A stretch of DNA of 55,615 bases, taken from positions 1 through 55,615 of the forward strand of contig JARIHL010000068.1 in assembly GCA_029288315.1 (NCBI GenBank). Reading direction: 5' to 3'. The stretch's first letter is position 1. Each line of letters opens with the position of its first letter. The stretch comes from Candidatus Saccharimonadota bacterium. GTDB taxonomy: Bacteria > Patescibacteriota > Saccharimonadia > Saccharimonadales > EFPC-124. Below are positions 1 to 33,816 of the stretch, one piece after another. The notes under the pieces are model-generated. The model ran no database searches, had not been told where the DNA came from, and saw only the letters and a list, made by a program, of their open reading frames with translations. Both the position numbers and the translations under genes were made by a program.

Positions 1-349
1 GAAAAATCCACTGTCTAAAGTAATATTTAGACAACCTTCTGTGAGAAAGAAGCGCCCGAGCCGGATTTCTGTCCGGTGAAAGCACTAAGGAAATTCACTT
101 TACCTAAGTACTCAGATCGAACAAAAATCTGTGACTGATCGTAAGAGAGAACTCCCAACCGTACAGAAGACAATATCAGCTTTTCACACTTATTGCAAGA
201 CTTTTTAGAGACTCTTAAAATATCTATCAAACTTAAACTCGTTTCGTTGCGGCATTTTTACATTTGATCAAAGTGCTTTTTTATTAATTAGGTTGACGCC
301 ATTTCTAGGTGTTTCCAATATAAGCCGTTATTTTGTCATTATTGAATTT

Positions 350-820
350 TTAGTAATCAAAGGTGTGTATATACCGTCTGCCAAGTATAACTGGTACAGC
401 AATAAACGCGATTGCAAACCACACAGTATTTGCCTGATATATATCTGGGATAAACTGCAAAGCCAGAAAAAACAATGAAGCACTTGTTGTGGCAATCAGG
501 CTACCACCTAAACCGTTCATATAAAAGCTCTGTTGCGACTTCTTATCTTTCCCAATTTTACCCATTAAAGCAAGTAGTCCAATGCTTGCAAAAACCATTC
601 CAACCGTCGTAACTACTTGAAAAATCGAAATACTCGTAGGATGACGATAGACGCCAATGGCTAAACCACCGAGGCCCATCAGGAGCACGAGTATAAAAAA
701 GCTAATCACTGACAGTTTCTGCCAATTTTTCATATCTAATCTTGGATTACAAGTGGCAATGGCTGTTAATAACAACAGAATAAAACCTTTATAAATATGT
801 ATAGTAATAAATATTTCCAT
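350..820 (-). CDS. small integral membrane protein, function unknown
   Basis: 156-aa ORF made almost entirely of hydrophobic helices (4-5 predicted TM segments). It lies directly downstream of a MerR regulator on the same strand. Confidence 0.5.
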   Translation of the reverse strand: MEIFITIHIYKGFILLLLTAIATCNPRLDMKNWQKLSVISFFILVLLMGLGGLAIGVYRHPTSISIFQVVTTVGMVFASIGLLALMGKIGKDKKSQQSFYMNGLGGSLIATTSASLFFLALQFIPDIYQANTVWFAIAFIAVPVILGRRYIHTFDY

Positions 821-851
821 ATTCTAGTTTTTGTAGGTCACTGTTTCACGC

Positions 852-1199
852 CTACATTTTCTCAATCTTTGCTGCAATATATTGTTTCGTGGCTTGCAGT
901 TGTTCAATGCGTTCCTGAATGCGTTGTAATTGTTTATTAAAAACTGCTTTTTTCTCAGCAGATGTAAGCTCTCCACTTTCCCATAACTGAAGGCCGACTG
1001 TTAACTCACGCAATGAAAACCCTGCTGCTTGACCTAATTTTATAAACCGCATTCTCCTACTGGCTACCTCGGTAAAATAACGGTAGCCGTTTGTACCACG
1101 AGTTATATGCCGCTCATCAAGGAGGCCAACTTTTTCATAATGGCGGATGGCGGCGCAAGATACATTATACTGACGGGATAATTGTTTAATTGTCATCAC
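852..1199 (-). CDS. MerR family transcriptional regulator
   Basis: N-terminal HTH TIKQLSRQYNVSCAAIRHYEKVGLL, followed by a coiled-coil dimerisation helix (LQRIQERIEQLQATKQYI). This is the typical MerR layout. Confidence 0.85.
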   Translation of the reverse strand: MMTIKQLSRQYNVSCAAIRHYEKVGLLDERHITRGTNGYRYFTEVASRRMRFIKLGQAAGFSLRELTVGLQLWESGELTSAEKKAVFNKQLQRIQERIEQLQATKQYIAAKIEKM

Positions 1200-1268
1200 A
1201 TTAAAACCTGCATCGCGTTTTATCTTTCTGCTTTACGATACCTCACTAAACACTTCGACTACGCACCG

Positions 1269-1688
1269 TCAAAAAGTAGTAGGCTTAGCCATGACTAACT
1301 TCGAAATGATGGCACTCAAAGCAAGTATCGTAGCCGCCGCAAAAGGGATGGCGTGGCTTGCATCTGAAGGAGTAAGGAGCAAAAGTTCAATAATAGTGAT
1401 TGCTCCAACCGCCGCGCTTAAAGAAAGGAGTACAGATGCAATTTTCCAGTGTGATCTCTGGGGCCGCATGAGATAACTTGCCCCGAGGGTAATGGCCGAG
1501 ACGAGTGCGAAAAGCGTTGTACCAGTTAATTGGCTGGCAAGCAAACGATTGTTCCAATAAGCTTGATCCGCATGGAAGTAGTCACTCAAACCACTTATTC
1601 CCACCGTAGTATAGCCAATAGCAGATATCAGCCAGATCACCCCTGCGACGAGTGCAAGCACAATTGGTACATAGATAGATAGTTTCAT
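1269..1688 (-). CDS. integral membrane protein (about 4 TM), function unknown
   Basis: 139-aa hydrophobic ORF with an ATG start. No recognisable catalytic motif. Confidence 0.5.
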   Translation of the reverse strand: MKLSIYVPIVLALVAGVIWLISAIGYTTVGISGLSDYFHADQAYWNNRLLASQLTGTTLFALVSAITLGASYLMRPQRSHWKIASVLLSLSAAVGAITIIELLLLTPSDASHAIPFAAATILALSAIISKLVMAKPTTF

Positions 1689-1736
1689 ACTTTGTTACCT
1701 TAGTTTAGATAAGCTCTATTTTAACACAATAAAAAA

Positions 1737-1784
1737 CCGTGATGAACGGTGACGCCTGTTTCAGGCTGTCACCGTTCATCACGG
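1737..1784 (-). terminator. rho-independent terminator of the SLOG operon
   Basis: Perfect 17-bp stem ccgtgatgaacggtgac / gtcaccgttcatcacgg. On the minus strand it is followed by a T-run (aaaaaa at 1731-1736 on plus). It starts 15 nt after the stop at 1799. Confidence 0.7.
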
Positions 1785-1798
1785 GAACATCATGAAGC

Positions 1799-2722
1799 TC
1801 AGAGTATCTCGCCGAAGCCGTGATCCTGCAGCCAGCGCTGGGCTTGACGAGGATCGGTGCTGTCAACGACAGTCACCTGATCCACGTTGCCCATGGCCGT
1901 CGGATCCGCCTGAATCTGCTCCAGAACCTCATGATTAGCGTCCACCAGATCGAACCGGCCATCGAGAACCCTGATGAAGTTGTCGACAATGCGGCCAGAT
2001 CCCCGAGGCAAGAGCATCGGGAAGCCCCGCTGGAGCGAGAGCCAGATCTCTTTGGCGGTTACTCCACCACCGCTGTAGAAGAACTGCGCCGCCTCACCTT
2101 CTCCGCTGAGCCGGATGATATCCATTAGGTCATGATAAGCGATCAGGTCGCCGTCCCATCCACTCGTATCGCTGGCATTTTGCTGTACCAGCCACAAGAA
2201 ATGAATATCAGGGTTGGCGATGGTATTTGTATCAGCTTCTTCCGCCAAAGAGAAACTGCTGCGATCGCCCTCATATCCCAGAGTCTTGGCAGTTCTGGGC
2301 GCATGTCCGGCGGTTCGCACGCATGGATCAAGACGATGAATTAACCCCGGCACCTCGACAATAGTCATGGTGCCCGTAGGGCTGCCGTCGGACAGTCCTG
2401 CTTCGAGTACCCTGGTACCGCCACTCATTGCGCCAAAGGGGTATGTTTGGAACGGATAGTCCGGGTTGCCGCCAAAGACACTCTGGAAGTACCAGAATTG
2501 ATCTTTTCGAGCAGCTTCCTCTTTGACAGTGGTGGCGCCTGCGAAGTTGAGGATACCTTTCATACCGCCGCAGCGAGTGAGAACCGATCGGGGTACACCT
2601 TCGCTCGGAAAATTACTGACCATTAGCGCCACCCTGTGGTGACCGTGATAACTCGCAACAGTGACACGCTGTCCTTGGCCAGGCACGAAGAAGTCCTTGT
2701 AGCCAATCGAGAGCTGCGCCAT
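1799..2722 (-). CDS. SLOG (LSDAT/TRPM-N-terminal-like) domain protein, paralog B with a degenerate first glycine loop
   Basis: High-GC ORF. I chose the internal ATG at 2722 (MAQLSIGYKD) because AAGGAG lies 9 nt upstream and the upstream gene stops at 2727. Motifs FFYSGGGVTAKEIW and MLLPRGSGRIVDNF match the GGxxT..E and (E/x)GSGR(I/A)AD signatures of TRPM MHR1/2 / SLOG domains. Confidence 0.6.
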   Translation of the reverse strand: MAQLSIGYKDFFVPGQGQRVTVASYHGHHRVALMVSNFPSEGVPRSVLTRCGGMKGILNFAGATTVKEEAARKDQFWYFQSVFGGNPDYPFQTYPFGAMSGGTRVLEAGLSDGSPTGTMTIVEVPGLIHRLDPCVRTAGHAPRTAKTLGYEGDRSSFSLAEEADTNTIANPDIHFLWLVQQNASDTSGWDGDLIAYHDLMDIIRLSGEGEAAQFFYSGGGVTAKEIWLSLQRGFPMLLPRGSGRIVDNFIRVLDGRFDLVDANHEVLEQIQADPTAMGNVDQVTVVDSTDPRQAQRWLQDHGFGEIL

Positions 2723-2726
2723 GTCG

Positions 2727-3590
2727 TCACACTCCTTGTAGTTGTGGGGCGAACCCCATTTGACGGACCACGGTTGTGAGTTCCGCCTTCGTGCAGGACA
2801 CCACGTGCGGATGAGATGCACGCCACGCCAGGTTGTTAGCAAACTCGGTTGCCGCCCTACCACTATCTTCAACCAGCACTATCCACCAGGGATTCACTGG
2901 ATCATGTGGCAAATCAGCGACATGCAATATCTCTTTACGAGTGTACTCGCCACCGTTATATACCAAATGAAGCGACCGATGGTCACCTTCTCGGCGTAGC
3001 AAGTCCATATAGTCCAGGCAGACGAGTGCTTCATCAAACCAGGTCAGGTTCGGCCGGTCGGTGTTGAACTGCGCCAATACGCAGACCGGCGCCCTTTCGT
3101 CAAGGATAGTGTAGTGTGGCTCATCCGGCCGATTCTCGATGATTATCGAACCGCCATACAGGCGAGGCCCGTTGATGGTTGGTGCCACTCCCACAGTTTT
3201 GCCTAGAGCTCCCAAACGAGCAAGCTCGCAGAGGACATCCATCACACCTGGCTTGCGATGCGAAATAGTAGCAGCGCCTGCATGGAGCGGGCAATACGTT
3301 CTATTTCGATCGCACTCAGCGCAAATGCCGGGCTCTGGCCGACTAATAACCATAGTAGCCCCAGCTAAAACTGATGCCAGGCAATCTACACCGCCAAGCG
3401 CCTCGGCCAGTAGTTGGGCCACTCCGGCGCCTTCGTCAGCTGACATGTGCCCAGCACCACCGGTTACTCGCACGACTGCCTTGAGAAGAGAAGAGGCCAA
3501 ACGGACCAAATCTACTCGTGTCACGGCATCAGCGCGAGAGATAGCGATACTGCACATTCTCAACCAAGCGCCTAATTGAAGGTTGGGCAT
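2727..3590 (-). CDS. SLOG (LSDAT/TRPM-N-terminal-like) domain protein, paralog A
   Basis: High-GC 287-aa ORF with all three signature loops: VVRVTGGAGHM (compare TRPM ISVTGGAKNF), LVYNGGEYTRKEI, and IVLVEDSGRAATEFA (compare VVVEGSGRIADVI). Confidence 0.6.
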   Translation of the reverse strand: MPNLQLGAWLRMCSIAISRADAVTRVDLVRLASSLLKAVVRVTGGAGHMSADEGAGVAQLLAEALGGVDCLASVLAGATMVISRPEPGICAECDRNRTYCPLHAGAATISHRKPGVMDVLCELARLGALGKTVGVAPTINGPRLYGGSIIIENRPDEPHYTILDERAPVCVLAQFNTDRPNLTWFDEALVCLDYMDLLRREGDHRSLHLVYNGGEYTRKEILHVADLPHDPVNPWWIVLVEDSGRAATEFANNLAWRASHPHVVSCTKAELTTVVRQMGFAPQLQGV

Positions 3591-3768
3591 AACACCCCCC
3601 TCTCGTAGCTTGTGAATAGTCGCGAGGGACGCGACACGACAATGATCACCCCAGATGAGTGAACAAAGTTAACAAAACTATACAACTATCTATGGATATT
3701 GTCTAGAGCAGCTTCTATAAAAGGTTACCGTTCATATAAGCTTCACCTTCCTAGGAGGAACGAGCAAT

Positions 3769-3787
3769 TAGCATAATCATTATGCTA
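3769..3787. promoter_or_regulatory. perfect 19-nt palindrome, candidate operator
   Basis: TAGCATAAT-C-ATTATGCTA lies 66 nt upstream of the ATG at 3853. It shares the TAGCATA core with motifs at 28866, 29361 and 50865. Confidence 0.3.
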
Positions 3788-3852
3788 GCCATAAAGGATT
3801 TGCTGCGTTATCATTAAAATTAAGAATGTAATAATGTAATTATTTAGCAAGC

Positions 3853-4476
3853 ATGGCACGACTACCAGAATTAGGAGGAGACGAGGGTACGTGGGGAATT
3901 GTTCTCAACGATTACCTTCAAGTCTCTCTCAATGCCGACGGCACCTTGAAGGCGAGCGCCACACCAGTACAATCAGTTGCCAGTAAAACCGGTGCTATTT
4001 CTTTGGTCAAGAGCGACGTTGGCCTGGGTAATGTTGATAATACTGCTGACACCAACAAACCTATCTCCACCGCCACTCAAACTGCCCTCAATGGTAAAGC
4101 GGACGTTAACACCACCGATGCGCTGGATACCCGAATTGATGCTTTAGAAACTGCAGGCATCGTCAGCTTAACTGATGGGGCTACCATTGCGACGAATGCG
4201 GCTACCGGAAAACACTTTCGCGTTACTGTGGCAGGCAATAGAACCTTAAGCACTCCTACCAATGCCACCGATGGCATGCGACGCATCTGGGAAATAACGG
4301 CCTCAGGCGCAGATAGAACTATCACCTTCACTACTGGCGTTGCTGGAAGTTTTGAGTTAACAACAAATATTACTTCGCCAATTACCATTACCAGCGGCAA
4401 GACGCACTTTATCGGTGCAATATATAACGCCTCAGGCGATCGATGGACTATATTGGCATCAAGAGCGACTTCATAA
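3853..4476 (+). CDS. phage tail-fibre/minor-tail-like protein (short paralog)
   Basis: The N-terminus MARLPELGGDEGTWGIVLNDYLQVSLNADGTLKAS is nearly identical in pattern to that of the 19185 gene. This LPxxGxDEGTWGxxLNDxL motif is one I associate with actinophage minor tail/fibre proteins. The rest is Thr/Ala/Gly-rich and beta-type. Confidence 0.5.
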   Translation: MARLPELGGDEGTWGIVLNDYLQVSLNADGTLKASATPVQSVASKTGAISLVKSDVGLGNVDNTADTNKPISTATQTALNGKADVNTTDALDTRIDALETAGIVSLTDGATIATNAATGKHFRVTVAGNRTLSTPTNATDGMRRIWEITASGADRTITFTTGVAGSFELTTNITSPITITSGKTHFIGAIYNASGDRWTILASRATS

Positions 4477-5031
4477 ATGGCGAGTTATAGCGACGATTTT
4501 AATCGATCAGATTCGACAAATATAGGCAACTGGGTAGAATGGAACGATGACTGGTCTATCACCAGCAATCAGCTGGCACCGGGCACGGCTTCAATCGCAT
4601 TTGTAATCTACGCGTCACCACTTGCTACATCCGATCATTACACACAAGCGGTACTGGCTAATGCCACTACCTCTTCGATGGGTGTCTTCGCTCGATCTAC
4701 ATCGGACGGCAGTTCATATTACTTATGGCGTAGCAATGGATCTGTCTGGAACTTATTCCGTCAAGTCGGCGGTTCGTTCATCGATTTAGGATCCTACAAT
4801 GCTTCGCTGGCCAATGGCGATGTGGCTCGGATTGAATGCGTTGGCTCTACCATCAAAGGTTATGTGAATGGCATTGAACGTCTATCCGTTACTGATACGG
4901 TTATAACTTCTGGATTATACGCTGGTATTCGCAGCACTCCAAGCTCAACCGCACGATACGACAATTTTTTAACAAGCGATATCAGCCCGATCGTTGACAG
5001 TGACATAGGTGCATTTTTTGACTTTATGTAG
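4477..5031 (+). CDS. LamG/concanavalin-A-like lectin-fold protein
   Basis: The start ATG directly abuts the upstream TAA (taaATG). The sequence pattern YYLWRSNGSVWNLFRQVGGSF...GDVARIECVGSTIKGYVNGIE is typical of the ConA-like/LamG jelly roll. Confidence 0.5.
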   Translation: MASYSDDFNRSDSTNIGNWVEWNDDWSITSNQLAPGTASIAFVIYASPLATSDHYTQAVLANATTSSMGVFARSTSDGSSYYLWRSNGSVWNLFRQVGGSFIDLGSYNASLANGDVARIECVGSTIKGYVNGIERLSVTDTVITSGLYAGIRSTPSSTARYDNFLTSDISPIVDSDIGAFFDFM

Positions 5032-5037
5032 GCTGTT

Positions 5038-5544
5038 ATGAAATCGCAAGGATTAGGTGATAACCAAGCTCGCACATTTACACCTCTCTTAGTGATGTTT
5101 GGTATCGTGCTTTGTTGGGCAACAGCGTTGACTTATCCCTGGTCAAGCCATCATGCTGGGCACGACTGGATGCGGCATGTGATGGGCGGATTTTTCCTGC
5201 TTTTTGGGGGGCTGAAGGTTGTCAATTTGCGTTCTTTTGCATTTTTATTTCGTGAATACGACATTATTGCAAAGCGAGTTGCAGTCTATGGCTCTATCTA
5301 TCCATTTCTTGAAATTGCACTTGGTATCGCTTACACCTTTAGTTTCTTTTTATTGGCTACAAATGTCATAACTGTAGTAATCATGAGTATTGGCGCTATT
5401 GGAATCATCCAAAAACTGCTAGCTAGACCGAAGTTCACCTGCGCATGCCTGGGCGGGCTTTTTACTATACCCCTCACCTGGCTCACTGCCGCCGAAAATA
5501 TAGTTATGGCGGCCATGGCTATCTATATGATTTTCTTCTCCTAA
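5038..5544 (+). CDS. MauE/DoxX-family membrane protein
   Basis: 168 aa with 4-5 TM segments. It has the CACLGG motif (compare the CGCFG of the MauE family) in the last helices. Confidence 0.55.
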   Translation: MKSQGLGDNQARTFTPLLVMFGIVLCWATALTYPWSSHHAGHDWMRHVMGGFFLLFGGLKVVNLRSFAFLFREYDIIAKRVAVYGSIYPFLEIALGIAYTFSFFLLATNVITVVIMSIGAIGIIQKLLARPKFTCACLGGLFTIPLTWLTAAENIVMAAMAIYMIFFS

Positions 5545-5613
5545 AACATTTTAAGGAGTCAGCTCAAATTGTAGTGAGGGCTGCTGAGGATAACCCCTGC
5601 AGCCCTCACGTCT

Positions 5614-6606
5614 TCACGCACCTATACCCATCAGCAAATGTGCAACTGCTTTGCCGATAGGTTGCCCAGTGGCTTGTTCTACAAAAAACCAGACGCCGAG
5701 GGTATTAATTTCAAAGAACCAATGAACACCTGAACAATCTACCCTCATATCGATCGCTCCATATTGTATCCCCAGATGCTGAAGCAGATCAGCACAACGC
5801 CGTTCAATCTCTGCAGGCAATGTGTAGGGCTCAATAGAAATGTTACCGCTTACCGTCCGCCCTACTGCCCGCCAGTCGCATACGGGGCCGGAATATCCTT
5901 GATCATTCGTGAGTTTGACAGCAAATACTTTTGCGCCTACGACAATAATGCGCAGATCTTCTCCTTCGATGTATTGCTGAAAGATTGCCGGTGCCCGAGG
6001 AAGTCCACTAAGACGCGGCAAAGATTCTGGTGTTATTTTGCCAGACCAAAATACCAAATAATGATCTTCTTGAGGCGTTATCGGAGCCCAGTCAGAACAG
6101 GTTTTAACCATGCAACAGCCTGTTCGATTTTGTTCAGCTGCAATGAATGTTGCTGCTCTGGCTGGATCTGACGTCTGAAGCGTGCGTGGCACAGAAAAAC
6201 CAAGTGAAGCGGCAACTTGCAGTTGCCAAGGCTTGCAGTCAACGCGCATCATGTCATAGGGATCTGATACCCAAAGAGCATTACTAAACCAGGCACCCAT
6301 CGCCTTGGCGTGCCGTTCGACAGCAGCCTTCGAGTAATCCCGCAGAAAACTCGGGATTTGTTCAAATGGCAGTTTATCTCCAATAAGCGCTATGGGTTGG
6401 CGCCACCATATTGCCGAAACATCAGTGAGTTGTTGCCCTCCAACATAGATAGAACTTTTTTTGTCTTCTTGGCAATACGATATTTCTTCTCCTTGTGGAA
6501 TAGCAGCGAGATCAACAATTATGAGTTCGCAATCCATGTGCGGAGAAACAAGAGAGTAATGAGCATCCCTTGGGTCTATCACAGCCAATATCTGCCCATT
6601 CGGCAC
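5614..6606 (-). CDS. ATP-grasp peptide ligase of the microviridin MvdC/MvdD (graspetide macrocyclase) type
   Basis: Block-wise similarity to MvdD as I remember it: VSAIWWRQP (VSAVWYRR), KPWQLQVAASLGFSVPRTLQTSDP (KQLQLQVARQLGLLIPGTLTSNNP), DWRAVGR (DWRKEGR), and YGAIDMRVDCSGVHWFFEINTLGVWFFVE (YGAIDMIVTPDERYIFLEINPVGEFFWLE). Confidence 0.8.
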   Translation of the reverse strand: MPNGQILAVIDPRDAHYSLVSPHMDCELIIVDLAAIPQGEEISYCQEDKKSSIYVGGQQLTDVSAIWWRQPIALIGDKLPFEQIPSFLRDYSKAAVERHAKAMGAWFSNALWVSDPYDMMRVDCKPWQLQVAASLGFSVPRTLQTSDPARAATFIAAEQNRTGCCMVKTCSDWAPITPQEDHYLVFWSGKITPESLPRLSGLPRAPAIFQQYIEGEDLRIIVVGAKVFAVKLTNDQGYSGPVCDWRAVGRTVSGNISIEPYTLPAEIERRCADLLQHLGIQYGAIDMRVDCSGVHWFFEINTLGVWFFVEQATGQPIGKAVAHLLMGIGA

Positions 6607-6645
6607 CGGGGTTCTCCTTCTTGATGGGAACGATTATGAAGGTGC

Positions 6646-6679
6646 GAGACTGGAGTGCCAATTTTGGCACTCCAGTCTC
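6646..6679 (-). terminator. intercistronic hairpin between the candidate precursor and the ATP-grasp gene (attenuator or processing site)
   Basis: Perfect 14-bp stem gagactggagtgcc / ggcactccagtctc with a 6-nt loop. It lies 22 nt after the stop at 6702 and 39 nt before the ATP-grasp start. No clear T-run follows it. Confidence 0.5.
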
Positions 6680-6701
6680 TCAGGCGTACAGCGAGACAGC
6701 C

Positions 6702-6872
6702 CTAAAGATTCTCTCCAGTCGGCCCACCGCCGGTCTCATCAACCGTTGAAGCCGAAATCCATCCCGCAGGAGGCGAGAACCTCCTCGGTTGCGGGAACAT
6801 AAGCTCCGGATATCCGAATACCTCGAGAGAGTTGCCCGTGAAGAGCGTTTCAGTGATTGTCGGCGTGTCCAT
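6702..6872 (-). CDS. candidate graspetide (omega-ester/amide RiPP) precursor peptide
   Basis: 56-aa ORF MDTPTITETLFTGNSLEVFGYPELMFPQPRRFSPPAGWISASTVDETGGGPTGENL with AAGGA 5 nt upstream of its ATG. In-frame alternative starts exist at 6878 and 6932. It sits immediately upstream of, and on the same strand as, the ATP-grasp ligase. The C-terminus is rich in Thr/Ser and Asp/Glu. Confidence 0.4.
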   Translation of the reverse strand: MDTPTITETLFTGNSLEVFGYPELMFPQPRRFSPPAGWISASTVDETGGGPTGENL

Positions 6873-7048
6873 ACCCATCCTTTGTCGTCGGGCAAGTACG
6901 TCACTTTTGTTTATAGCAAGCCTTACAGGCATAGTCAATAAAATGGTAATGTATCAAGCGTAACCAAACTGACTGATTATGATTCAATCTAAGTTAGCCC
7001 AGATTATGCAAGTACAACGATTGATGCGAATGATAAGTTGGGCGTTAA

Positions 7049-8074
7049 TTAAATATGCCCGCCTGCAAGTGCCAAAATAATACCTAACGCGGCGCACACC
7101 TGCCCAACAATCCAAAATCTCATGGTTACTTTAGTCTTTGGCCAACCAATAGCCTCAAGATGGTGATGAAACGGTGCTGAGATAAATATTTTACGGTGAA
7201 AGATTTTTTTAGAAAGTATTTGTGTCAGGCTTGAGCCAGCCTCGGCAACAAACACGAGGCCAATAATCGGTAGCAGGAATAATGTATCAGTCAACATGGC
7301 TACCACTCCCAATGCTGTTCCCAGCGCAAATGAGCCCGCATCTCCCATAAAGAAGCGCGCCGGGGGGATATTAAACCACACATATGCCAGGAGTGATCCG
7401 ACAACTGTCATACAGAATGCAGCAATGCCAAAATTACCCTGTAGTGCGGCAATAATCCCAAATGTTCCATACGCACTCATCAAGAGCCCGCCCGCTAAGC
7501 CATCTAATCCATCACTGATATTAACAGCATTACCAGTACTGACGACTACTAAAATAAAAAGTGGGATGAGCAGCCAGCCAAGTGCTATATCTCCTACAAA
7601 CGGAATGTGTGCCGCTGTGTAGCCTAGCTTGTAATAGAAAAACCATGCACCGATTGCCGCAACAGCCGTGATCATGGCAAATTTTATTGGAGACCGCAAG
7701 CCCGCTACACCGCCGCCCTTACCTCTGACATTAATAATATCGTCGATCAGCCCAACAATCCCGCCCCCCAACAATGCAGCCAAAGGCAGCCATGTCTGCT
7801 GGCGATCAAGATTAAATAACACCGTTACAGCGGTAACGGCAACTAGAATAATCACCCCAGCCATAGTCGGTATGTTTGGCCTACGAGTGCGCAACCGGGC
7901 AATAACTTCGAGCACTTCGCCCGTTGCCGAAGTAGTACGCGACAACTTCCAAAATTTATAGCGATACGCAAAGAATGTATAGATCGGCGTCAACAACATG
8001 GCCACACAAAAGGTGAGAAAACTCAGCGATAAAACCATTATTGCTTCTTGAGTGAGCTGTTCGAGTGTGAGCAT
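7049..8074 (-). CDS. mraY: phospho-N-acetylmuramoyl-pentapeptide transferase
   Basis: Polytopic membrane protein with NAVNISDGLDGLAGG, FMGDAGSFALG and a C-terminal PFHHHLE, which are the canonical MraY motifs. Confidence 0.9.
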   Translation of the reverse strand: MLTLEQLTQEAIMVLSLSFLTFCVAMLLTPIYTFFAYRYKFWKLSRTTSATGEVLEVIARLRTRRPNIPTMAGVIILVAVTAVTVLFNLDRQQTWLPLAALLGGGIVGLIDDIINVRGKGGGVAGLRSPIKFAMITAVAAIGAWFFYYKLGYTAAHIPFVGDIALGWLLIPLFILVVVSTGNAVNISDGLDGLAGGLLMSAYGTFGIIAALQGNFGIAAFCMTVVGSLLAYVWFNIPPARFFMGDAGSFALGTALGVVAMLTDTLFLLPIIGLVFVAEAGSSLTQILSKKIFHRKIFISAPFHHHLEAIGWPKTKVTMRFWIVGQVCAALGIILALAGGHI

Positions 8075-8241: not shown

Positions 8242-8865
8242 ATGAATATAGAAGCAACAACAGAACAGAACAGAAATCAATTTCATGAGTTGCATCATCC
8301 AATACTGATTATAGTAAGAGGCGTACCAGGCAGTGGTAAATCTTATTTAGCTGCCGCCTTACAAGAATCTCTCGGAAAAGAAAATGTAGTAACTCTTGAT
8401 CCTGACTCCATAGATCAAACCAGCAAAGAATATAGTGACTTTTCCAAAGCTTTAACCACAGAAGGAGTCGATACAAAGCTTCACCCCTACAGATTTTCAA
8501 GATCAAAAGCTTATGAGGCAATCGTTGCCCATAAAATTATTATCTGGAATCAACCTTTTATAGATTTTGAGGGATTTAGAAAAACAATCGATAGATTGCA
8601 AACATATGCCGCAGAACACACTACTCAGTTGCCAGCACTTGTTGTAGAGGTTGAAGTTAGTGAGGCCATCGCTAAAAAAAGAGTGATGAGCAGAAAAGAA
8701 CAGGGCGGGCACGGCCCAGCCGAAGATATTTTTGCTTACTTTATAAGCCAATATAAAAGTTTTTCAGAAAAAGGATACACCACCGTAATCGTTCAGGGTG
8801 AAGATGATGTAGCCGTATCTGTATCGGCAGTCAAGAATGCGCTCAGGAAATTACAGGAGAGATAG
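8242..8865 (+). CDS. P-loop NTPase/kinase (AAA_33 / zeta-toxin-like fold), function unknown
   Basis: Walker A GVPGSGKSYLA near the N-terminus. About 200 aa, the size of a small nucleotide/polynucleotide kinase. Confidence 0.55.
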   Translation: MNIEATTEQNRNQFHELHHPILIIVRGVPGSGKSYLAAALQESLGKENVVTLDPDSIDQTSKEYSDFSKALTTEGVDTKLHPYRFSRSKAYEAIVAHKIIIWNQPFIDFEGFRKTIDRLQTYAAEHTTQLPALVVEVEVSEAIAKKRVMSRKEQGGHGPAEDIFAYFISQYKSFSEKGYTTVIVQGEDDVAVSVSAVKNALRKLQER

Positions 8866-10888: not shown

Positions 10889-12139
10889 GTGACTACCAAA
10901 GATCGTACCTTGCAGCAGGTCATCGCGCTGATGCGCACCGACGAGGTCATGAATACTGGCACCAAGCAAAAGCTAGTCACTACCGCAGGCACGTGCAAGG
11001 TTTCTGACTTGATCAACTTTGACGGAGCGAGCCTGGCCGAGTTTTTGCTCACTACCGACCCTACCCTGACCGATACTTGCGACCTGCTGACTGTATCAGA
11101 ACGTCTATTGCAGGCATTCGGACAAGCTGCAACCACCGCAGGCACTAGTTCACCAGCTACGCAGGCAGTCGATCAGGCCATCAAAGTTCAAGTTGAATTG
11201 CCACGCAACGTTGGTGATATGTCCCTTCGTGAGCTTCTGGAGCTCTTGCGTAGCAACCCTGACCGTGCCGATGAAATCCTGGCCTACGTGCAAGTACAAC
11301 CGCAAGTGGCCAGAGCATGCCGCAAGAGCGAACGCCTCGCCATCCTTCGCGATGGCCAGCTAGATGTCGAGGCCACCCTACGGTACATTACCCATGTGGC
11401 CCGAGACTATACGCAACTAAGCGAATTGTTCGAAGGCGTTCGCCCTACGACATTCGCCAAGGCGGCGGGTACGGATTCGCGGCCCTATATTCACCCCTTT
11501 ACTGGCGAGCCAGTTGAAGGTGCAGATGAACTAGGCTTCGACTTCAGTGCACTGAATGAGGAGCTTCATAACGCCCTCCTCTGGGCGTCGGTAACGAGGC
11601 ACCCCGCCTGGCCGGCAACAATCGACCGTTTCACCATGTCGCAGGAAGTCTTCGAGACGACTTTGCCACGCAGATGGCAGCTTATCCTCGATGCCTATCG
11701 GGCAGCCAAAGCTGACAATGACGAAGTTGCAACTCGCATCAACCGCTACTATCCTAAGGAGTTGATGAGAAGTCTCGGATTGGCTGGCCCTTCCGGGAGC
11801 CGCCACCCTTTCGGTCATGAGTCAAAACGGACCCCAGAGTGGTACGAAGAACAGCTCCGAGCGATTGCCGAAGCGCCCATCAGCGTAATCGGCAGCAACG
11901 TTCACAGACGGCAATGTGTATTGACGTCTGTTTCGACCCAAGGCGGCAACATCCATCTTGGTGACGTCATTCTGCTGGGCAGAGCCGTTACCACTGGTGG
12001 AAATCTCAGCGGCAAAGCCTGCATGCCTACAGGTGTTGGTGCCCACACAGTGGGTGGCGACAACAATCTGCAGGCGTACAACTTCTCGTGGAAGAAGCTC
12101 TACGAGAAAGCTGTTGAGCTTGGCTTGATCGACGTCTGA
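10889..12139 (+). CDS. hypothetical protein (high-GC orphan, no family recognised)
   Basis: 416-aa ORF with a GTG start preceded by GGAAGGAAAGAGA. GC rises abruptly at the start codon and falls after the terminator at 12166-12199. The C-terminus has short GG-containing beta-like repeats (GGNIHLGDVILLGRAVTTGGNLSG). Confidence 0.6.
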   Translation: MTTKDRTLQQVIALMRTDEVMNTGTKQKLVTTAGTCKVSDLINFDGASLAEFLLTTDPTLTDTCDLLTVSERLLQAFGQAATTAGTSSPATQAVDQAIKVQVELPRNVGDMSLRELLELLRSNPDRADEILAYVQVQPQVARACRKSERLAILRDGQLDVEATLRYITHVARDYTQLSELFEGVRPTTFAKAAGTDSRPYIHPFTGEPVEGADELGFDFSALNEELHNALLWASVTRHPAWPATIDRFTMSQEVFETTLPRRWQLILDAYRAAKADNDEVATRINRYYPKELMRSLGLAGPSGSRHPFGHESKRTPEWYEEQLRAIAEAPISVIGSNVHRRQCVLTSVSTQGGNIHLGDVILLGRAVTTGGNLSGKACMPTGVGAHTVGGDNNLQAYNFSWKKLYEKAVELGLIDV

Positions 12140-17911: not shown

Positions 17912-19184
17912 CGAGTCTCCCTTTTGCTGGTTCAATGCGTAATTCGGCAATATTATTATAGAATGAAAAACAAAATTAGTCCAGACCTACTATACATGCC
18001 CCTGCGCAATAGCGAGGCAAAGCAACCGTTTTAAAATCCGATTACCATCATTAAGAGCCACTACTCATAGGCTGCGACATACATAAACAAAATCCGCTCA
18101 TCAACATAAGCGGATTTGGATAATGTCATGAATAAAAGGCGGAACACCATTCCTCAAAGTCTACTCATAATACATGAAAAACTTAGAAAGCTCGATTTTA
18201 TGCCGACAACCAACTTCACTAAACAATGCGCCATACATCCTCACTGTGACCACGCATTAATCTTGAACATTACAGCGAGGGCTAGTATATAGTGAATGAT
18301 GATGGAGGTACCATTTCTACCTTCTAAAGAAAGGTTTTAAAACAATGCCTAAGTTAAACGACTTCGAACAGCGAGTCCCCGGTATTCTTGATCCGCCAGG
18401 CGTCGTAAGGCCCGATCATTACCATCGAATCGATGCGGAGTTCACTCAATTCAGAATACCCGATGATCCACTTGCGCCGGCCAGTATCCATGTCAATGTC
18501 CAACGTGCTAGCGTACTTGAACCCTTGGTTATGGGCCCCGGAAAGACACACCGAGAAAGGGACCTAAACCCGATTAAGTGGCTTTCCGGGACGCTTCGAA
18601 GGTAGTGCTCTTACCGCATGGGACTATTACCAGGAACGGCAGAGTGGTGAGAATTGGCATAGTAAATATCACGACAACTTTCTCGTTGCCCAGGAGCTAT
18701 TAAAAACTACTCTCTCTTCCGCGCCGAGATAGTCGCATGGCAGAGTTCCGGGACTTCCTAACCGAGGCAACCTATATGGTCTTCGGCCGTTTACCAACCC
18801 TTTTGCCCAACGGTTCACATACGCAGTATTGGGGACCGGACCTTGCTGATGATGTAGCGATAGTCCTTTATATGTCTTCTCGCACTATCCAGGAAGGCAG
18901 ATCGTTTTCTAAATATAGGCACGCTCACCTGGGATTAGCTTGTTCGAATGACTTACAAAGGTGAAAGAACAAATAAAAAGTTTCAGCTAATATTTCCTGA
19001 ACATTTTACCTCTGTGAGAATTGAATAATGTCATACCCGAAAGCATTCGTTCGAAATGGCGCTAGTAAGCATATTCATGATTCATGATGGTTGTATGCCG
19101 TGAGCTTCTCAATAGTAAGCTTCCATTATAGCCACAAGCAATTTGATAGGTTATTATAAGATAAGTAATTATAATAAATGGTAT

Positions 19185-20090
19185 ATGGTACGACTACCGC
19201 AACCAGGAGCTGATGAAGGGACATGGGGAGAGATCCTCAATGATTTCTTGAATGTTGAGCACAATGCTGATGGCACGCTGAAAGCCAGTGGTTCGCTCGC
19301 AAGCAAAGCTAACGATTTAGCAGTGGTACATAATACTGGCAACGAAGCTATTGCTGGCATCAAAACCTTCAACGCTTCCCCGGTTATACCCACGCCAACC
19401 GCAGCCAACCAGGCTGCAAGCAAAGGGTATGTGGATGGTGCCGTCGGCGCTGCTGATGCCACAACCAGCAGTAAAGGTGTAGTCCAGTTGTCAGGTGATT
19501 TGGGTGGCGCCGGCACTACGGCCAGTGCGCCGGTAATTAGTGATGGCGCTATCACCACAGCCAAGCTCGCTAGTGGTGCGGTCACCTCAAATGAGATTGC
19601 TGACGGTACGATTATCAATACTGATATCTCCGGCTCGGCTGCTATCGCTAAATCAAAATTAGCTAGTCTGAGCATTGTTGATGCTGACATCTCAAGCATC
19701 TCTGAGAGTAAGGTTACCAATTTAACGACCGATCTAGCAGCACGAACCACCACCACAAACGGCGGTGGCGAAATTTACTTCGATGCCGGCAATTCTGGCG
19801 CGGCAAAAACGCTTGATCTGGCCAATGGTAATGTACAAAAACTCACTTTGACTGCTAGTTGCACCATTACGCTCACCAGCCCAGCTTCAGGGGCAATGCG
19901 CTCGCTTACCTTGCTAGTGTTCCAAGATGGCACCGGATCACGCACGATCACCTGGCCTGCTTCGCTAAAATGGGGTAATGCCGGAGCACCGGTGCTAACT
20001 ACTACCGCAGCCAAAATGGACATTATTTCACTCTTCACCGTTGATGGCGGTACCAATTGGTATGGCGCACTTGGCGCTAAAGGATATTAA
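19185..20090 (+). CDS. phage tail-fibre/minor-tail-like protein (long paralog)
   Basis: The ATG at 19185 gives MVRLPQPGADEGTWGEILNDFLNVEHNADGTLKAS, paralogous to the 3853 gene. The middle carries fibre-like repeats (ITTAKLASGAVTSNEIADGTIINTDISGSAAIAKSKLASLSIVDADIS). The C-terminal half aligns with the 3853 protein (TLTASCTITLTSPASGAMRSLTLLV vs FRVTVAGNRTLSTPTNATDGMRRIWEI). Confidence 0.55.
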   Translation: MVRLPQPGADEGTWGEILNDFLNVEHNADGTLKASGSLASKANDLAVVHNTGNEAIAGIKTFNASPVIPTPTAANQAASKGYVDGAVGAADATTSSKGVVQLSGDLGGAGTTASAPVISDGAITTAKLASGAVTSNEIADGTIINTDISGSAAIAKSKLASLSIVDADISSISESKVTNLTTDLAARTTTTNGGGEIYFDAGNSGAAKTLDLANGNVQKLTLTASCTITLTSPASGAMRSLTLLVFQDGTGSRTITWPASLKWGNAGAPVLTTTAAKMDIISLFTVDGGTNWYGALGAKGY

Positions 20091-20095
20091 ATTAC

Positions 20096-20782
20096 ATGAC
20101 CAGCCTCCCTTCAGCCCGGCTGACGGCATTGCGACGGCGAGAGCAGCACCCGAACTTGCTTGGTGCTTGGGGCTTTGATGAAGGCACTGGCACAATCGCC
20201 CGTGATAGCTCAGAACATAATGCATCATTGACCGTCAGCCCCAGCTTAGCATGGGTAGCCGGGCACTCCGCCGGTACTGCTATTAGCAATACCGGCGGAG
20301 GTGGCAGTTCAGCCTACACCACCTGGACCGTCAGCGTGCCCATTACCATTATGGGTTGGGCTCGGCCTACCGATTTAACACCCGGCTCTACCCGGCCGCT
20401 TTTTGGTATTTGGGATACAAGCGACTTCTCTGGCTCCACCCAATGCGCCATCTCAGCCCAACGCGGCGATTTCGGCACACCCAATGTCTTGCAAGGCAAC
20501 GTGCGTGTTAATGGTGGGCTAGTCGAGATAGCTCACACTGCTCTCACAGTTAATACATGGTATCATCTTGCGTTATCCTATGATGGCACTACCATCCGTC
20601 TTTTTCGAGATGGATCAGAGGTTGCCACAGTCTCTATTACTGGCACAATTTTTTCAGCTGCCTATTTCTTTGCGGTAGTTCCAGGTCCCACAAACGCACA
20701 GGTTGATGACGCCCGGGTGTTTAATGCCGCGCTCACTGCCGCTCAAGTCGCCGCCTTTATGGGTGATCCAGTAGCACCATAA
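20096..20782 (+). CDS. LamG (Laminin_G_3-like) domain protein
   Basis: WYHLALSYDGTTIRLFRDGSEV ... VDDARVFNAALTAAQV is the classic LamG_3 ending (compare iDevriynraLsaaei). It starts 5 nt after the fibre-like gene, the same arrangement as 3853/4477. Confidence 0.7.
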   Translation: MTSLPSARLTALRRREQHPNLLGAWGFDEGTGTIARDSSEHNASLTVSPSLAWVAGHSAGTAISNTGGGGSSAYTTWTVSVPITIMGWARPTDLTPGSTRPLFGIWDTSDFSGSTQCAISAQRGDFGTPNVLQGNVRVNGGLVEIAHTALTVNTWYHLALSYDGTTIRLFRDGSEVATVSITGTIFSAAYFFAVVPGPTNAQVDDARVFNAALTAAQVAAFMGDPVAP

Positions 20783-31123: not shown

Positions 31124-31688
31124 ACCTACTATGATATAACTATTGACAATTTTTGATAATAATGATATATTTAGTCCTGTCATCGTTTTGCGGCATGTGA
31201 GGTGGAGATCTCTAGCCCAGAAGATGGGTACCATAACATATAATGTATTTGCCTGAATATCGGCTCGTTCGAGATCAGGCTTTTCTTATACAAGGTACCT
31301 TTGTCTTTAGCGGTTCCGCGAGATGAGAAGGGCACATTAACAAGTCGAATCATTACAGTTCATTTAGCTACTTAACCAGTGTAGCGATGCGTTCTTTCGA
31401 AAGGCATCGCCGCAATCCTCGCCTTCCTGAGAGGGCGCTTCGCTGCACTGCAATAACAGTAGCAGCTGGCTACCAATGGCCTTCACAGGCCGTGTTTAGT
31501 CAGTTAGATATAGCATCTGCAAGCTGCTTTAGCTTGATGTGTCGCATTTGGCGTTTTGCCGGCTTCTTTATTATATAAAGCCGTCAGCACGCCAAATGTG
31601 TACTGTCTCGCGAGCAGCGCACATCAGCCTCCGACGTGGAGGCATTTGGCACTGTCAAAAGTACCGAAGACTCCACGAAGGAGATATC

Positions 31689-32708
31689 GTGACCACCGTA
31701 ACCAACAACCCCCAGCCCACCACTGACACTCAGGCACTGCGCGACCTCGAGGCGGCTCTGGGCCGTATCGTCAGTCAGCAAACGTCTGGCATGCAGAGCA
31801 AGATCGATCAGGTCACTGCTGGACAGGCCGACCTGACCGGTGTTCGCCAGGCCCTCGAGGCTCTCGACCCGATCGTGTCCCGTCACACGGACCAGATCGG
31901 CGACCTGAACAGTCGGCTGGGTACCATCGCCAGCCTCCTCCAGACCGCTGGCACCACGCTGCTGCAGCAGGCGCAAAACCTGCCCAGCGGTAACCTGGAC
32001 TCTAGCGCGCTCACCGCGAGCCGCCAGCAGCTTCAGGAGGTCGCCCAGCAGCTTCAGGAGGTCGCGGCCACCGCCGCATCCCGCCTGGAGCGGATCGAGA
32101 CGGCGCTGGGAATGGACCCGGACACCGGGCGCTCCCGCGTTCTCGACGACCACGGTTGGCGGCTTCACCATGTCAGCAACGCGCTGGACATGGATGCAAC
32201 TGGCCAGTCTGGTCACGTCAACAAGATCAACGCTCTGCTCGGTCTCGACCGTCCCGACGGTCAGCCCGACATCATCAAAGAGCTGACCGCTGGACAGGAG
32301 GCCATTGCAACAGCAGTCGCTGGAGTCAACTCCGCGCTGCTCATGCAGCCGGATGGTCGCGCGGACCGCATTGAGCGGATCGAAAGCCGGGTCGCCGCCC
32401 TGGAGAACCAGGGAGGCGGGCTCGGTAGGTCGCTACTGATCGGCGGAGCCGTCGGTCTGGTAACGTGGCTGTTCGTCGCCGTCGTCTTTGCCACCCCTGG
32501 ATGGGTGGATATCGTGATCGGTCTTACGACCTTCCTGGCCGTGACTGGTGTTGCGATGTTCCTTGGTGGCGGTAACAGCCGTCGTCCGGCTCGGCCTCGC
32601 CACACACCGCGGCGAGTTGTCCCGACACGGACCCCAGCGCCGGCAAACCAGCGAGGTAACGGTCAGAACCCTGCCACACCGGCCAACCCGCCGGCAAACC
32701 AGGCCTGA
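31689..32708 (+). CDS. coiled-coil membrane protein with a Pro/Arg-rich tail (high-GC, actinobacterial style)
   Basis: GTG at 31689, 5 nt after GAAGGAG. About 250 aa of heptad-like coiled coil include the tandem QQLQEVAQQLQEVA. Two or three TM helices follow (LLIGGAVGLVTWLFVAVVF, IVIGLTTFLAVTGVAMFLGG), then RRPARPRHTPRRVVPTRTPAPANQ. Confidence 0.65.
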   Translation: MTTVTNNPQPTTDTQALRDLEAALGRIVSQQTSGMQSKIDQVTAGQADLTGVRQALEALDPIVSRHTDQIGDLNSRLGTIASLLQTAGTTLLQQAQNLPSGNLDSSALTASRQQLQEVAQQLQEVAATAASRLERIETALGMDPDTGRSRVLDDHGWRLHHVSNALDMDATGQSGHVNKINALLGLDRPDGQPDIIKELTAGQEAIATAVAGVNSALLMQPDGRADRIERIESRVAALENQGGGLGRSLLIGGAVGLVTWLFVAVVFATPGWVDIVIGLTTFLAVTGVAMFLGGGNSRRPARPRHTPRRVVPTRTPAPANQRGNGQNPATPANPPANQA

Positions 32709-32775: not shown

Positions 32776-33816
32776 ATGCCAAACAGACGCAGACGCGCAG
32801 GCGGACTAGTGTTGGCTAGCAGTGGGGTGCTCCTGACCCTGCTGTTTGCCCTGGTCCTTCTCGGTGTCGTTCCCTCACCCATTCCGGGCGTCGGGCCGGC
32901 ACCGGCACAAGCAGCTCAGACGTGCATCAACGAGGTGCACGTTCATTACTACGATCACAACAAGAACCACCCTGGCGATTTCGGCGCACCAGTCACCACG
33001 ACCGATGCCACCGAAGCCACGGAAATCGAACGGCAAACCCGGTGTGAAGATCCATACATCACGGCCAGTCACATGGCTGAAAAAGGGTGGATCACCAATA
33101 CCGATTCGGCCATCCAGGCTGAAGCTGAACGATACCAACTTGATCGAGTCGCCTGGCAACAGTCACTCGATCGCTTAGATCGATGGGAAGAAGGAGCTAC
33201 TGCTACCATCGAAGATGCGCCGTCTTCATACTGGACGTACGCGATGCGGGCTGGTGCCGATCGTACTTCGGTGTCAGTTTACCAAACGCATGTTGCGCAT
33301 GGCTCAGGTAAGGTTCTGGTCTATCGGCGTGACGGCGTGACCGTTATGCACCGGTTAGACTGCTTGTTCCAGCCGGTCAGCGTCCAGCAACTTCCCGAGC
33401 AAGTACCTCCAATCCGAGAGGTGCCCAAGGGACAAGGTGGCGAACAGCCTCCGGGCTCACCGCCGCCGAGCAGTTCGGTTCCGCCGCCACCCGGTACGGG
33501 TGACTGCAAGCCCAACTGCCCGACCACGACCGTCCCTCCGCCGCCGAGTGATGATTGTCATGACCGTGGAGACTGCAAGTCGTCCAATCCGGACGACTAT
33601 GTCTACCCTGATGGCAAACAGAAGGTGGATGCACCTGGCGCAGCCGATCCGGCTCCGCTAGTAGTGGAAACCCAACGGCATGAGCCGGAGCCTGCGCCAG
33701 TCATCACACCTGGTAACACAACCGACGACACTCCTGTCGACACCGGTAGTGACACCAACCACGGAACCGTTCCAACGGATCCGGGGCAAGGATGCACCAA
33801 CCCCGACTTCTGCTGA
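32776..33816 (+). CDS. secreted Cys-containing protein with a Pro-rich C-terminal half (high-GC)
   Basis: RRRR-containing signal peptide MPNRRRRAGGLVLASSGVLLTLLFALVLLGVV ... AQA. GGAGAAG lies 4 nt upstream of the ATG. It has PPPSSSVPPPPGTGDCKPNCPTTTVPPPPSDDC linkers. No family recognised. Confidence 0.65.
   Translation: MPNRRRRAGGLVLASSGVLLTLLFALVLLGVVPSPIPGVGPAPAQAAQTCINEVHVHYYDHNKNHPGDFGAPVTTTDATEATEIERQTRCEDPYITASHMAEKGWITNTDSAIQAEAERYQLDRVAWQQSLDRLDRWEEGATATIEDAPSSYWTYAMRAGADRTSVSVYQTHVAHGSGKVLVYRRDGVTVMHRLDCLFQPVSVQQLPEQVPPIREVPKGQGGEQPPGSPPPSSSVPPPPGTGDCKPNCPTTTVPPPPSDDCHDRGDCKSSNPDDYVYPDGKQKVDAPGAADPAPLVVETQRHEPEPAPVITPGNTTDDTPVDTGSDTNHGTVPTDPGQGCTNPDFC

Follow-up and report, generated by a model that had tools for sequence, protein, structure and literature searches.

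The stretch of DNA analysed here, referred to as the window, comprises 55,615 nucleotides of contig JARIHL010000068.1 from a Candidatus Saccharimonadota bacterium, and carries two adjacent minus-strand genes, A and B, that we predict to encode paralogous TRPM-type SLOG (LSDAT) domains (Table 1). The pair had been picked out in a first-pass annotation made from the sequence alone, and its account of gene positions, strand, spacing and the AAGGAG preceding the second gene was confirmed throughout, as was the presence of the motifs that it quoted (VVRVTGGAGHM, NGGEYTRKEI and VEDSGRAATEF in A; SGGGVTAKEI, PRGSGRIVDNF and MVSNFPSEG in B). The A stop codon (2729-2727) is separated by 4 nt from the B start codon (2722-2720), a gap compatible with translational coupling.

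The genes form the self-contained two-gene operon described in that annotation, co-transcribed between a promoter-like site of their own and a strong terminator. The promoter-like call is a consensus match only, the region holding four such sites where 2.8 are expected. Two expression signals had also been proposed for the operon, a 17-bp terminator and a GC hairpin in the 5' leader, and only the first withstood analysis. The terminator arms (1737-1753 and 1768-1784) form a perfect 17-bp inverted repeat downstream of B, with a predicted RNA fold of -43.7 kcal/mol (z = -9.7) that was equalled by none of 200 shuffled sequences. The leader hairpin exists as a 6-bp stem with a 5-nt loop at 3619-3635, but it is no more than chance: the predicted fold of the leader is no more stable than those of shuffled controls (z = -1.1), and the stem is missing from its minimum-energy structure. 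No Rfam family was matched across positions 1-8000, the leader included.

Table 1. Features of the A/B operon (window coordinates) and NUDIX genes near related pairs (coordinates of the respective locus).
Feature	Coordinates	Strand	Remarks
Promoter-like site	3677-3705	minus	TAGACA-17 nt-TATAGT, upstream of A; consensus scan, 10/12 positions
5' leader	3591-3676	minus	holds GC stem 3619-3635 and G-rich Shine-Dalgarno of A
Gene A	2727-3590	minus	287 aa, ATG start
A loop 1	3456-3464	minus	T43-G44-G45, glycine loop after strand 1; invariant in 25 orthologues
A loop 2	3351-3362	minus	G77-A78-T79-M80; diverged from family GGTR
A Cys3-His insert	3282-3323	minus	C90/C93/C100/H103; all four invariant in 25 orthologues
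A W184	3039-3041	minus	aligns with adenine-stacking F268 of srTRPM2
A loop 4	2931-2957	minus	NGGEYTRKE (GGxxTxxE motif)
A loop 5	2856-2867	minus	D242-S243-G244-R245; invariant in orthologues; aligns with TRPM2 GSG
Shine-Dalgarno of B	2732-2737	minus	AAGGAG, within A 3' end
Gene B	1799-2722	minus	307 aa; ATG nested within longer TTG-initiated open reading frame 1799-2872
B loop 1	2531-2548	minus	N59-F-A61-G62-A63-T64; counterpart of A TGGAG
B loop 2	2411-2425	minus	S100-G-G-T-R104, canonical family GGTR; invariant in B orthologues
B W189	2156-2158	minus	invariant; counterpart of A W184 and TRPM2 F268
B loop 4	2048-2074	minus	SGGGVTAKE, of which GGGVTAKE invariant in B orthologues
B loop 5	1991-2002	minus	G241-S-G243-R244; invariant in B orthologues
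Intrinsic terminator	1731-1784	minus	perfect 17-bp stem and inner helix, then U-tract
NUDIX near pair, L018	2843-3244
NUDIX near pair, L019	5398-5859
NUDIX near pair, L020	4627-5061
NUDIX near pair, L021	369-1199
NUDIX near pair, L004	226-3444

Searches of both proteins against profile models, which the first-pass annotation had proposed, returned a single Pfam family, LSDAT_prok (PF18171), for A and B alike. A scored 24.2 bits (E = 2.3e-5), 1.2 bits short of the gathering cut-off of 25.4, and B scored 13.6 bits (E = 0.04), 12 bits under it. Neither protein matched LSDAT_euk (PF18139) or the Pfam LOG family (Lysine_decarbox) at E up to 1, and scans of both against PADLOC, NCBIfam and PHROGs returned nothing. 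Distant members of the family lie above the LSDAT_prok cut-off, with 27.3 and 34.7 bits for members of distant pairs and 27.7 bits for another protein (P0105). The A profile connects these proteins to A at about E = 1e-27, and their connection to B has E = 8.6e-30, the value that hhalign gives B against the family alignment (99.8% probability). A precomputed PF18171 match is present in 14 of 29 A homologues, A itself counted. LSDAT_prok is the prokaryotic counterpart of TRPM MHR1/2, and its first description is credited to Burroughs et al. 2015 in PMC13143021. A and B have in common with PF18171 the glycine loops, the GGxxTxxE motif and the SGR motif; the LSDAT_prok loops (TGG, GGT, GGxxTxxE, SG) are all present in the pair, with the variants GATM at loop 2 of A and AGAT at loop 1 of B.

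Structure predictions of the two monomers, likewise proposed at the outset, point in the same direction. AlphaFold2 models built from homologue alignments reached a predicted local distance difference test score (pLDDT) of 86.4 and a predicted template modelling score (pTM) of 0.86 for A, and 68.5 and 0.77 for B. In Foldseek searches of the PDB, the best matches of model A were the MHR1/2 regions of TRPM2, TRPM3, TRPM7 and TRPM4 (E = 1.6e-6 and weaker), the first match outside TRPM being the type-II LOG structure 5wq3 (template modelling score, TM-score, 0.59 on the target), and the best matches of model B were likewise TRPM MHR1/2 regions, with TRPM2 at E = 7e-7. At the level of sequence, a profile of 66 family members found residues 140-357 of srTRPM2, the choanoflagellate 'chanzyme', among PDB sequences at E = 1.4e-6, with the TGG, GGT, GGxGT and GSG loops in register. 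Sequence, modelled fold and transitive homology thus assign A and B to the TRPM-type SLOG (LSDAT) domains, as first annotated. Among the best matches of model B was also chain 6A of PDB entry 9nw3 (E = 4.4e-6, TM-score 0.53 on the target), a ciliary-tip central-pair protein annotated 'cation channel family protein' with a length of 256 residues in the structure library and 346 in the sequence file, so that stand-alone TRPM-type SLOG proteins occur in eukaryotes too.

The two proteins appear from their sequences to be ancient paralogues and soluble, stand-alone domains. A BLASTP alignment of A with B is confined to the GGxxTxxE region, and hhalign extends it to 207 columns (76% probability, E = 2.3e-5). 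This profile-profile alignment and that of B with the family place VRVTGGAG of A opposite LNFAGATT of B at loop 1, and LAGATM of A opposite MSGGTRVL of B at loop 2. In distant pairs, both proteins have a GGCG-type loop 1 and a GGT-type loop 2. The Saccharibacteria clade departs from this at one loop per paralogue, GGTR having become GATM at loop 2 of A, and TGGCG having become AGAT at loop 1 of B. The first-pass annotation had taken MVSNFPSEG of B for the site of a lost TGG loop and had cast the pair as a ligand-binding subunit with a degenerate partner, that is, A as the binder and B as a non-binding scaffold. The AGAT loop of B does contain fewer glycines than the family TGGCG, and B scores far lower than A on the Pfam model. 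However, the supposedly lost loop was a misalignment: MVSNFPSEG falls in an N-terminal extension of B, and the true loop 1 is NFAGAT, in which N59, A61 and G62 are invariant among orthologues and A63 and T64 at least 90% conserved. Moreover, B retains SGGTR, W189, GGGVTAKE and GSGR, all invariant, it is A that diverged at loop 2, and distant B proteins keep GGCG. We therefore regard a degenerate B as very unlikely. With 69 invariant columns in its orthologue alignment, B equals A in the number of invariant positions and for this reason reads as a constrained partner with a pocket of its own, not as a decayed copy.

Across the 66 family members, G44, G213, G214 and E220 (A numbering) are invariant, and conservation is 90% or higher at R41, G45, G77, G134, W184, T217, S243 and G244. 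A likeness to TRPM2 MHR1/2 extends over about 216 aligned srTRPM2 positions, including loop 1 of A, which aligns with the srTRPM2 TGG, and an aromatic residue at the adenine-stacking site, Trp in the pair and Phe or Tyr in TRPM2. In srTRPM2 this residue, F268, forms a stacking contact with the adenine of ADP-ribose (ADPR), and activation requires it (PMC11479946). Unlike TRPM channels, A and B have no channel, MHR3/4 or NUDT9-H domain, and their likeness to these channels is confined to fold and motifs. A further difference from TRPM2 is the Glu of GGxxTxxE, invariant in the 66 sequences and absent from the corresponding GGPGTLGT of TRPM2. Being invariant here and lost in the TRPM sensors, this glutamate may serve in catalysis.

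The same glutamate brings the LOG phosphoribohydrolases into consideration, cytokinin-activating enzymes that act as dimers and carry a PGGxGTxxE motif, the Glu of which is catalytic, together with a catalytic Arg in the helix before the motif. The pair could accordingly be imagined as a LOG-like heterodimeric N-glycosidase of ordinary nucleotide salvage that splits a nucleoside monophosphate or an ADPR-like compound, yielding a free base and a ribose phosphate. The likeness comprises the SLOG Rossmann-like fold, seen in the 5wq3 match of model A, and GGxxTxxE with its invariant Glu, in the place of which TRPM2 has another residue; the missing effector (see below) would fit as well, and Saccharibacteria are thought to depend on scavenged nucleotides. 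Against this proposal, neither protein gives even a marginal match to the Pfam LOG model, and the helix before the GG motif bears the TRPM-like stacking Trp in a conserved WxxE (Trp and Glu) but no Arg that is conserved family-wide as in LOG, R199 being invariant in the A clade only. The pair differs from LOG further in its putative heteromeric assembly and its accessory distribution. Taken together with the genomic evidence below, we consider a salvage enzyme unlikely.

Paralogue A has in addition a Cys3-His insert following loop 2, with its residues modelled at a pLDDT of about 90, that does not occur in four distantly related loci (L010-L013). It is probably a zinc knuckle that would bind metal. 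TRPM proteins also have a Cys3-His zinc site, which precedes the SLOG core on the N-terminal side (drTRPM2 residues 53-95; PMC9112350). Homology of the two sites was rejected on account of these different positions, and the insert of A is regarded as analogous.

A search of 5.8 billion proteins for homologues yielded only 29 clusters for A and 11 for B, and an exhaustive profile search of 1.84 billion representatives yielded 95 clusters. The named sources are metagenome-assembled genomes of Candidatus Saccharimonadales/Saccharibacteria and one 'Patescibacteria group bacterium', and one source contig had been binned as Candidatus Acidoferrum. The pair is strictly inherited in the order A-then-B. 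In all 18 loci that were readable on both sides among L001-L020, and likewise in L021 and L022, A is directly followed by B on the same strand, and the intergenic gaps are short or the genes overlap. This order holds even in L010-L013, where the proteins are only 23-26% identical to those of the window and where the first gene prefers the A profile and the second the B profile. The family has a median length of 264 residues, and no membrane-helix-type hydrophobic segment was detected in 145 family proteins. Three distant members of 705-801 residues (P0105, P0109 and P0121) carry the SLOG domain C-terminal to a region of 450-550 residues that has no Pfam match. A stretch of this region in P0105 had no match among PDB sequences, and one segment of the region may, as judged by eye, resemble a GNAT-type acetyltransferase.

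The neighbourhood survey, a further check proposed in the first-pass annotation, revealed neither an effector nor any other conserved neighbour. No neighbour family recurs across lineages in the 22 related loci, apart from residual synteny between close genomes. As annotated, no SLATT, TIR or nuclease effector is fused or adjacent to the pair at the window locus, and the same holds in the 22 related loci; SLATT was not among the precomputed Pfam matches of the neighbours, and neither SIR2 nor TIR occurred in the neighbourhood listings. LSDAT_prok is reportedly described, in the original comparative-genomics work and in its Pfam text, as a predicted sensor that is typically found fused to, or encoded next to, SLATT effectors with two transmembrane segments. 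Compared with that description, the pair differs in being soluble and stand-alone, in forming an invariant heterologous tandem, and in having neither SLATT nor any other effector.

These observations bear on the proposal that A and B serve as the sensing half of a conflict or signalling system with generator and effector encoded elsewhere in the genome, or an orphan left after their loss. The closest characterised relatives, TRPM2 MHR1/2 and the SLOG domain of ThsA, are ligand sensors, which speaks for a sensor, as do the reported role of LSDAT_prok, the apparent mobility of the module, and the PP2C and kinase-like genes that precede the pair in two loci. ThsA of type I Thoeris, also a prokaryotic SLOG protein, binds NAD-derived 3' cyclic ADP-ribose (3'cADPR) and works via oligomerisation. 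It belongs to another SLOG clade, however, and its SIR2 fusion and TIR partner are missing here; A and B have no PADLOC match. Evidence against a sensor half is that no partner recurs over about 18 lineages, and that TIR, cyclase and SLATT are absent from the 25 most-matched Pfam and 25 most-matched PADLOC families of the window's other open reading frames (ORFs), the PADLOC matches of which are all of a generic kind (helicase, ATPase, kinase and Fic). The strictly conserved motifs of A and B speak against an orphan remnant. Overall, we judge this proposal to be rather unlikely.

In the two loci just mentioned, which represent one distant lineage (L011, 1951-7078; L012, 2449-7067), the pair follows genes for a PP2C_2 phosphatase, a 628-residue kinase-like protein with a weak protein-kinase match (E = 2.5e-4) and a further two conserved proteins without assigned function, all on the same strand, and this gene set may constitute a larger signalling cassette. 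An assignment of two genes upstream of the pair as isochorismatase-like and vWA-like, guessed from motifs, was not supported by Pfam or PDB sequence searches. Just downstream of the pair in L011 are genes for PnuC, an AAA_28 (NadR-type ATPase) domain protein and an isochorismatase.

In four to five lineages a NUDIX gene is found no more than about 5 kb from the pair, directly downstream of B in one of them (L018), echoing the combination of SLOG and NUDT9-H in TRPM2. A motif scan of the window gave no Nudix-box match, the same scan having missed the Pfam-annotated NUDIX gene of L021. A family of small ORFs (L016, 8900-9478; L020, 613-1191; L005, 12836-13243) directly follows B in one lineage (L016/L020) and lies 3 kb off in another, and one member resembles nucleoside 2-deoxyribosyltransferase (PF05014) below the cut-off (E = 7e-4). 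The sporadic NUDIX genes of L018, L019, L020 and L021 and the deoxyribosyltransferase-like ORF after B in L016/L020 lend weak support to the salvage enzyme considered above; against this, the NUDIX neighbours are generic and MutT-like, fall under every NCBIfam cut-off, and are not conserved in their association with the pair.

The base composition of the operon differs from that of its surroundings. Its GC content is 55.7%, compared with 46.5% for the window, and is equally high in only 18 of 539 segments of the same size; the GC content at third codon positions (GC3) has a median of 0.43 and reaches 0.53 in A and 0.61 in B. The operon is not unique in this respect, since the window contains three further GC-rich islands (10889-12139, 31539-32708 and 32776-33816) with a GC content of 0.55-0.64 and a GC3 of up to 0.71, which encode proteins of 346-416 residues that lack a Pfam match. 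Compositionally foreign patches thus occur several times in the window, the A/B operon among them. In 11 of 12 loci of the Saccharibacteria type the pair exceeds its flanks by 9-16 GC points, and in the remaining, short locus (L017) by 4. The GC anomaly, the shifting neighbourhoods and the rarity of the pair together indicate an accessory module that probably moves horizontally, a rare element of Saccharibacteria and other Patescibacteria, bacteria with tiny genomes, in line with the horizontal acquisition that had been suggested for the window locus. Such patchy rarity and anomalous composition are unlike a core salvage enzyme, a further argument against that alternative.

No donor lineage was identified for the module. 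Protein-level searches of phage and plasmid collections and an IMG/VR scan returned no relatives, and the viral BFVD structure library no structural match, so that an origin of the pair in phages or plasmids is not supported. A 19-nt imperfect inverted repeat around the module, located at the GC transitions (1675-1693 and 3675-3693), is probably due to chance: it matches at 16 of 19 positions, the shuffle maximum being 15, and among the other loci only L010 has one, also with 16 of 19.

Several neighbours in the window deserve description in their own right. Divergent from the operon are two short plus-strand ORFs (3853-4476 and 4477-5031) with PHROG matches to tail-fibre or minor-tail proteins (down to E = 1e-19) and to tail or virion proteins, and a second, similar ORF pair 15 kb away (19143-20090 and 20096-20782, plus strand) has DUF5907/BppL_N baseplate-like and Laminin_G_3 domains. 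These ORFs may represent remnants of a phage tail or else surface proteins of a phage-like type, and the locus with the closest relative of the pair, L021, does not have them at that position. Within 5 kb of the operon there are also a Zeta-toxin/AAA_33-type P-loop kinase (8242-8865, plus strand) and an ATP-grasp-like protein with a PHROG match to a RimK-type family (5614-6606, minus strand); an orthologue of the latter near the pair in L001 is most likely leftover synteny.

Based on these results we propose that A and B assemble into an obligate hetero-oligomer that would bind an ADPR-like adenine-nucleotide ligand and act on it directly, a reading that, taken whole, we hold at about an even chance. 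Each subunit would keep a nucleotide pocket laid out like the ADPR pocket of TRPM2 MHR1/2, in which phosphate loops rich in glycine are joined by the adenine-stacking Trp and by the GGxxTxxE glutamate. Because the pocket appears to be built like the TRPM2 ADPR site, the ligand is probably an adenine-ribose-phosphate compound, for example ADPR or another NAD-derived nucleotide. Since neither an effector domain nor a conserved neighbour is found in about 18 independent contexts, the pair is probably a functional endpoint, which would bind its ligand and then sequester or cleave it, and not the sensor arm of a linked effector.

Several observations weigh against this proposal. Both heteromer formation and the nature of the ligand are points that we infer. 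A falls slightly and B well below the Pfam cut-off, and the model of B is only moderately confident, with 99 residues of pLDDT < 50. A second essential ADPR contact of srTRPM2, R275, aligns with a position that is not conserved in the family (C191 in A), and the ligand may therefore differ from ADPR. In L011 and L012 the pair lies directly downstream of the PP2C phosphatase and kinase-like genes, a context in which it can belong to a larger system. Lastly, the best-studied ligand-binding SLOG domains, TRPM MHR1/2 and that of ThsA, are pure sensors, and by analogy an effector may be present but unlinked.

A more ambitious version of the hetero-oligomer proposal, which we consider quite unlikely, would make the pair a hitherto unrecognised class of effector-less heteromeric SLOG machine that captures or destroys an NAD-derived nucleotide signal or toxin, acting as a chromosomal 'sponge' or hydrolase in the conflicts of episymbiotic Patescibacteria with phages or host bacteria. 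In that case no free-standing prokaryotic protein would come closer to modelling the ADP-ribose-sensing domain of TRPM channels.

Neither the domain family nor the nucleotide-binding role predicted for it is new, and among other SLOG clades the 3'cADPR sensor ThsA, the LOG enzymes and YpsA are characterised. Beyond the comparative-genomics prediction of 2015, which later papers cite, our literature searches found no work on prokaryotic TRPM-type SLOG domains and no experimental study of any prokaryotic LSDAT protein, in agreement with the first-pass annotation. Being small, soluble and self-contained, this clade offers a convenient and experimentally tractable entry point. Were the pair a salvage hydrolase, it would be an ordinary metabolic addition. 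If a heteromer with two non-identical nucleotide pockets proves true, it would show the fold working without a fused effector and would provide a bacterial, crystallisable stand-in for the TRPM ligand-binding domain. If the module quenches or cleaves an NAD-derived signal, it would be a new kind of player in nucleotide-based immunity, in the Candidate Phyla Radiation (CPR)/Patescibacteria, whose accessory genes are almost entirely unexplored.

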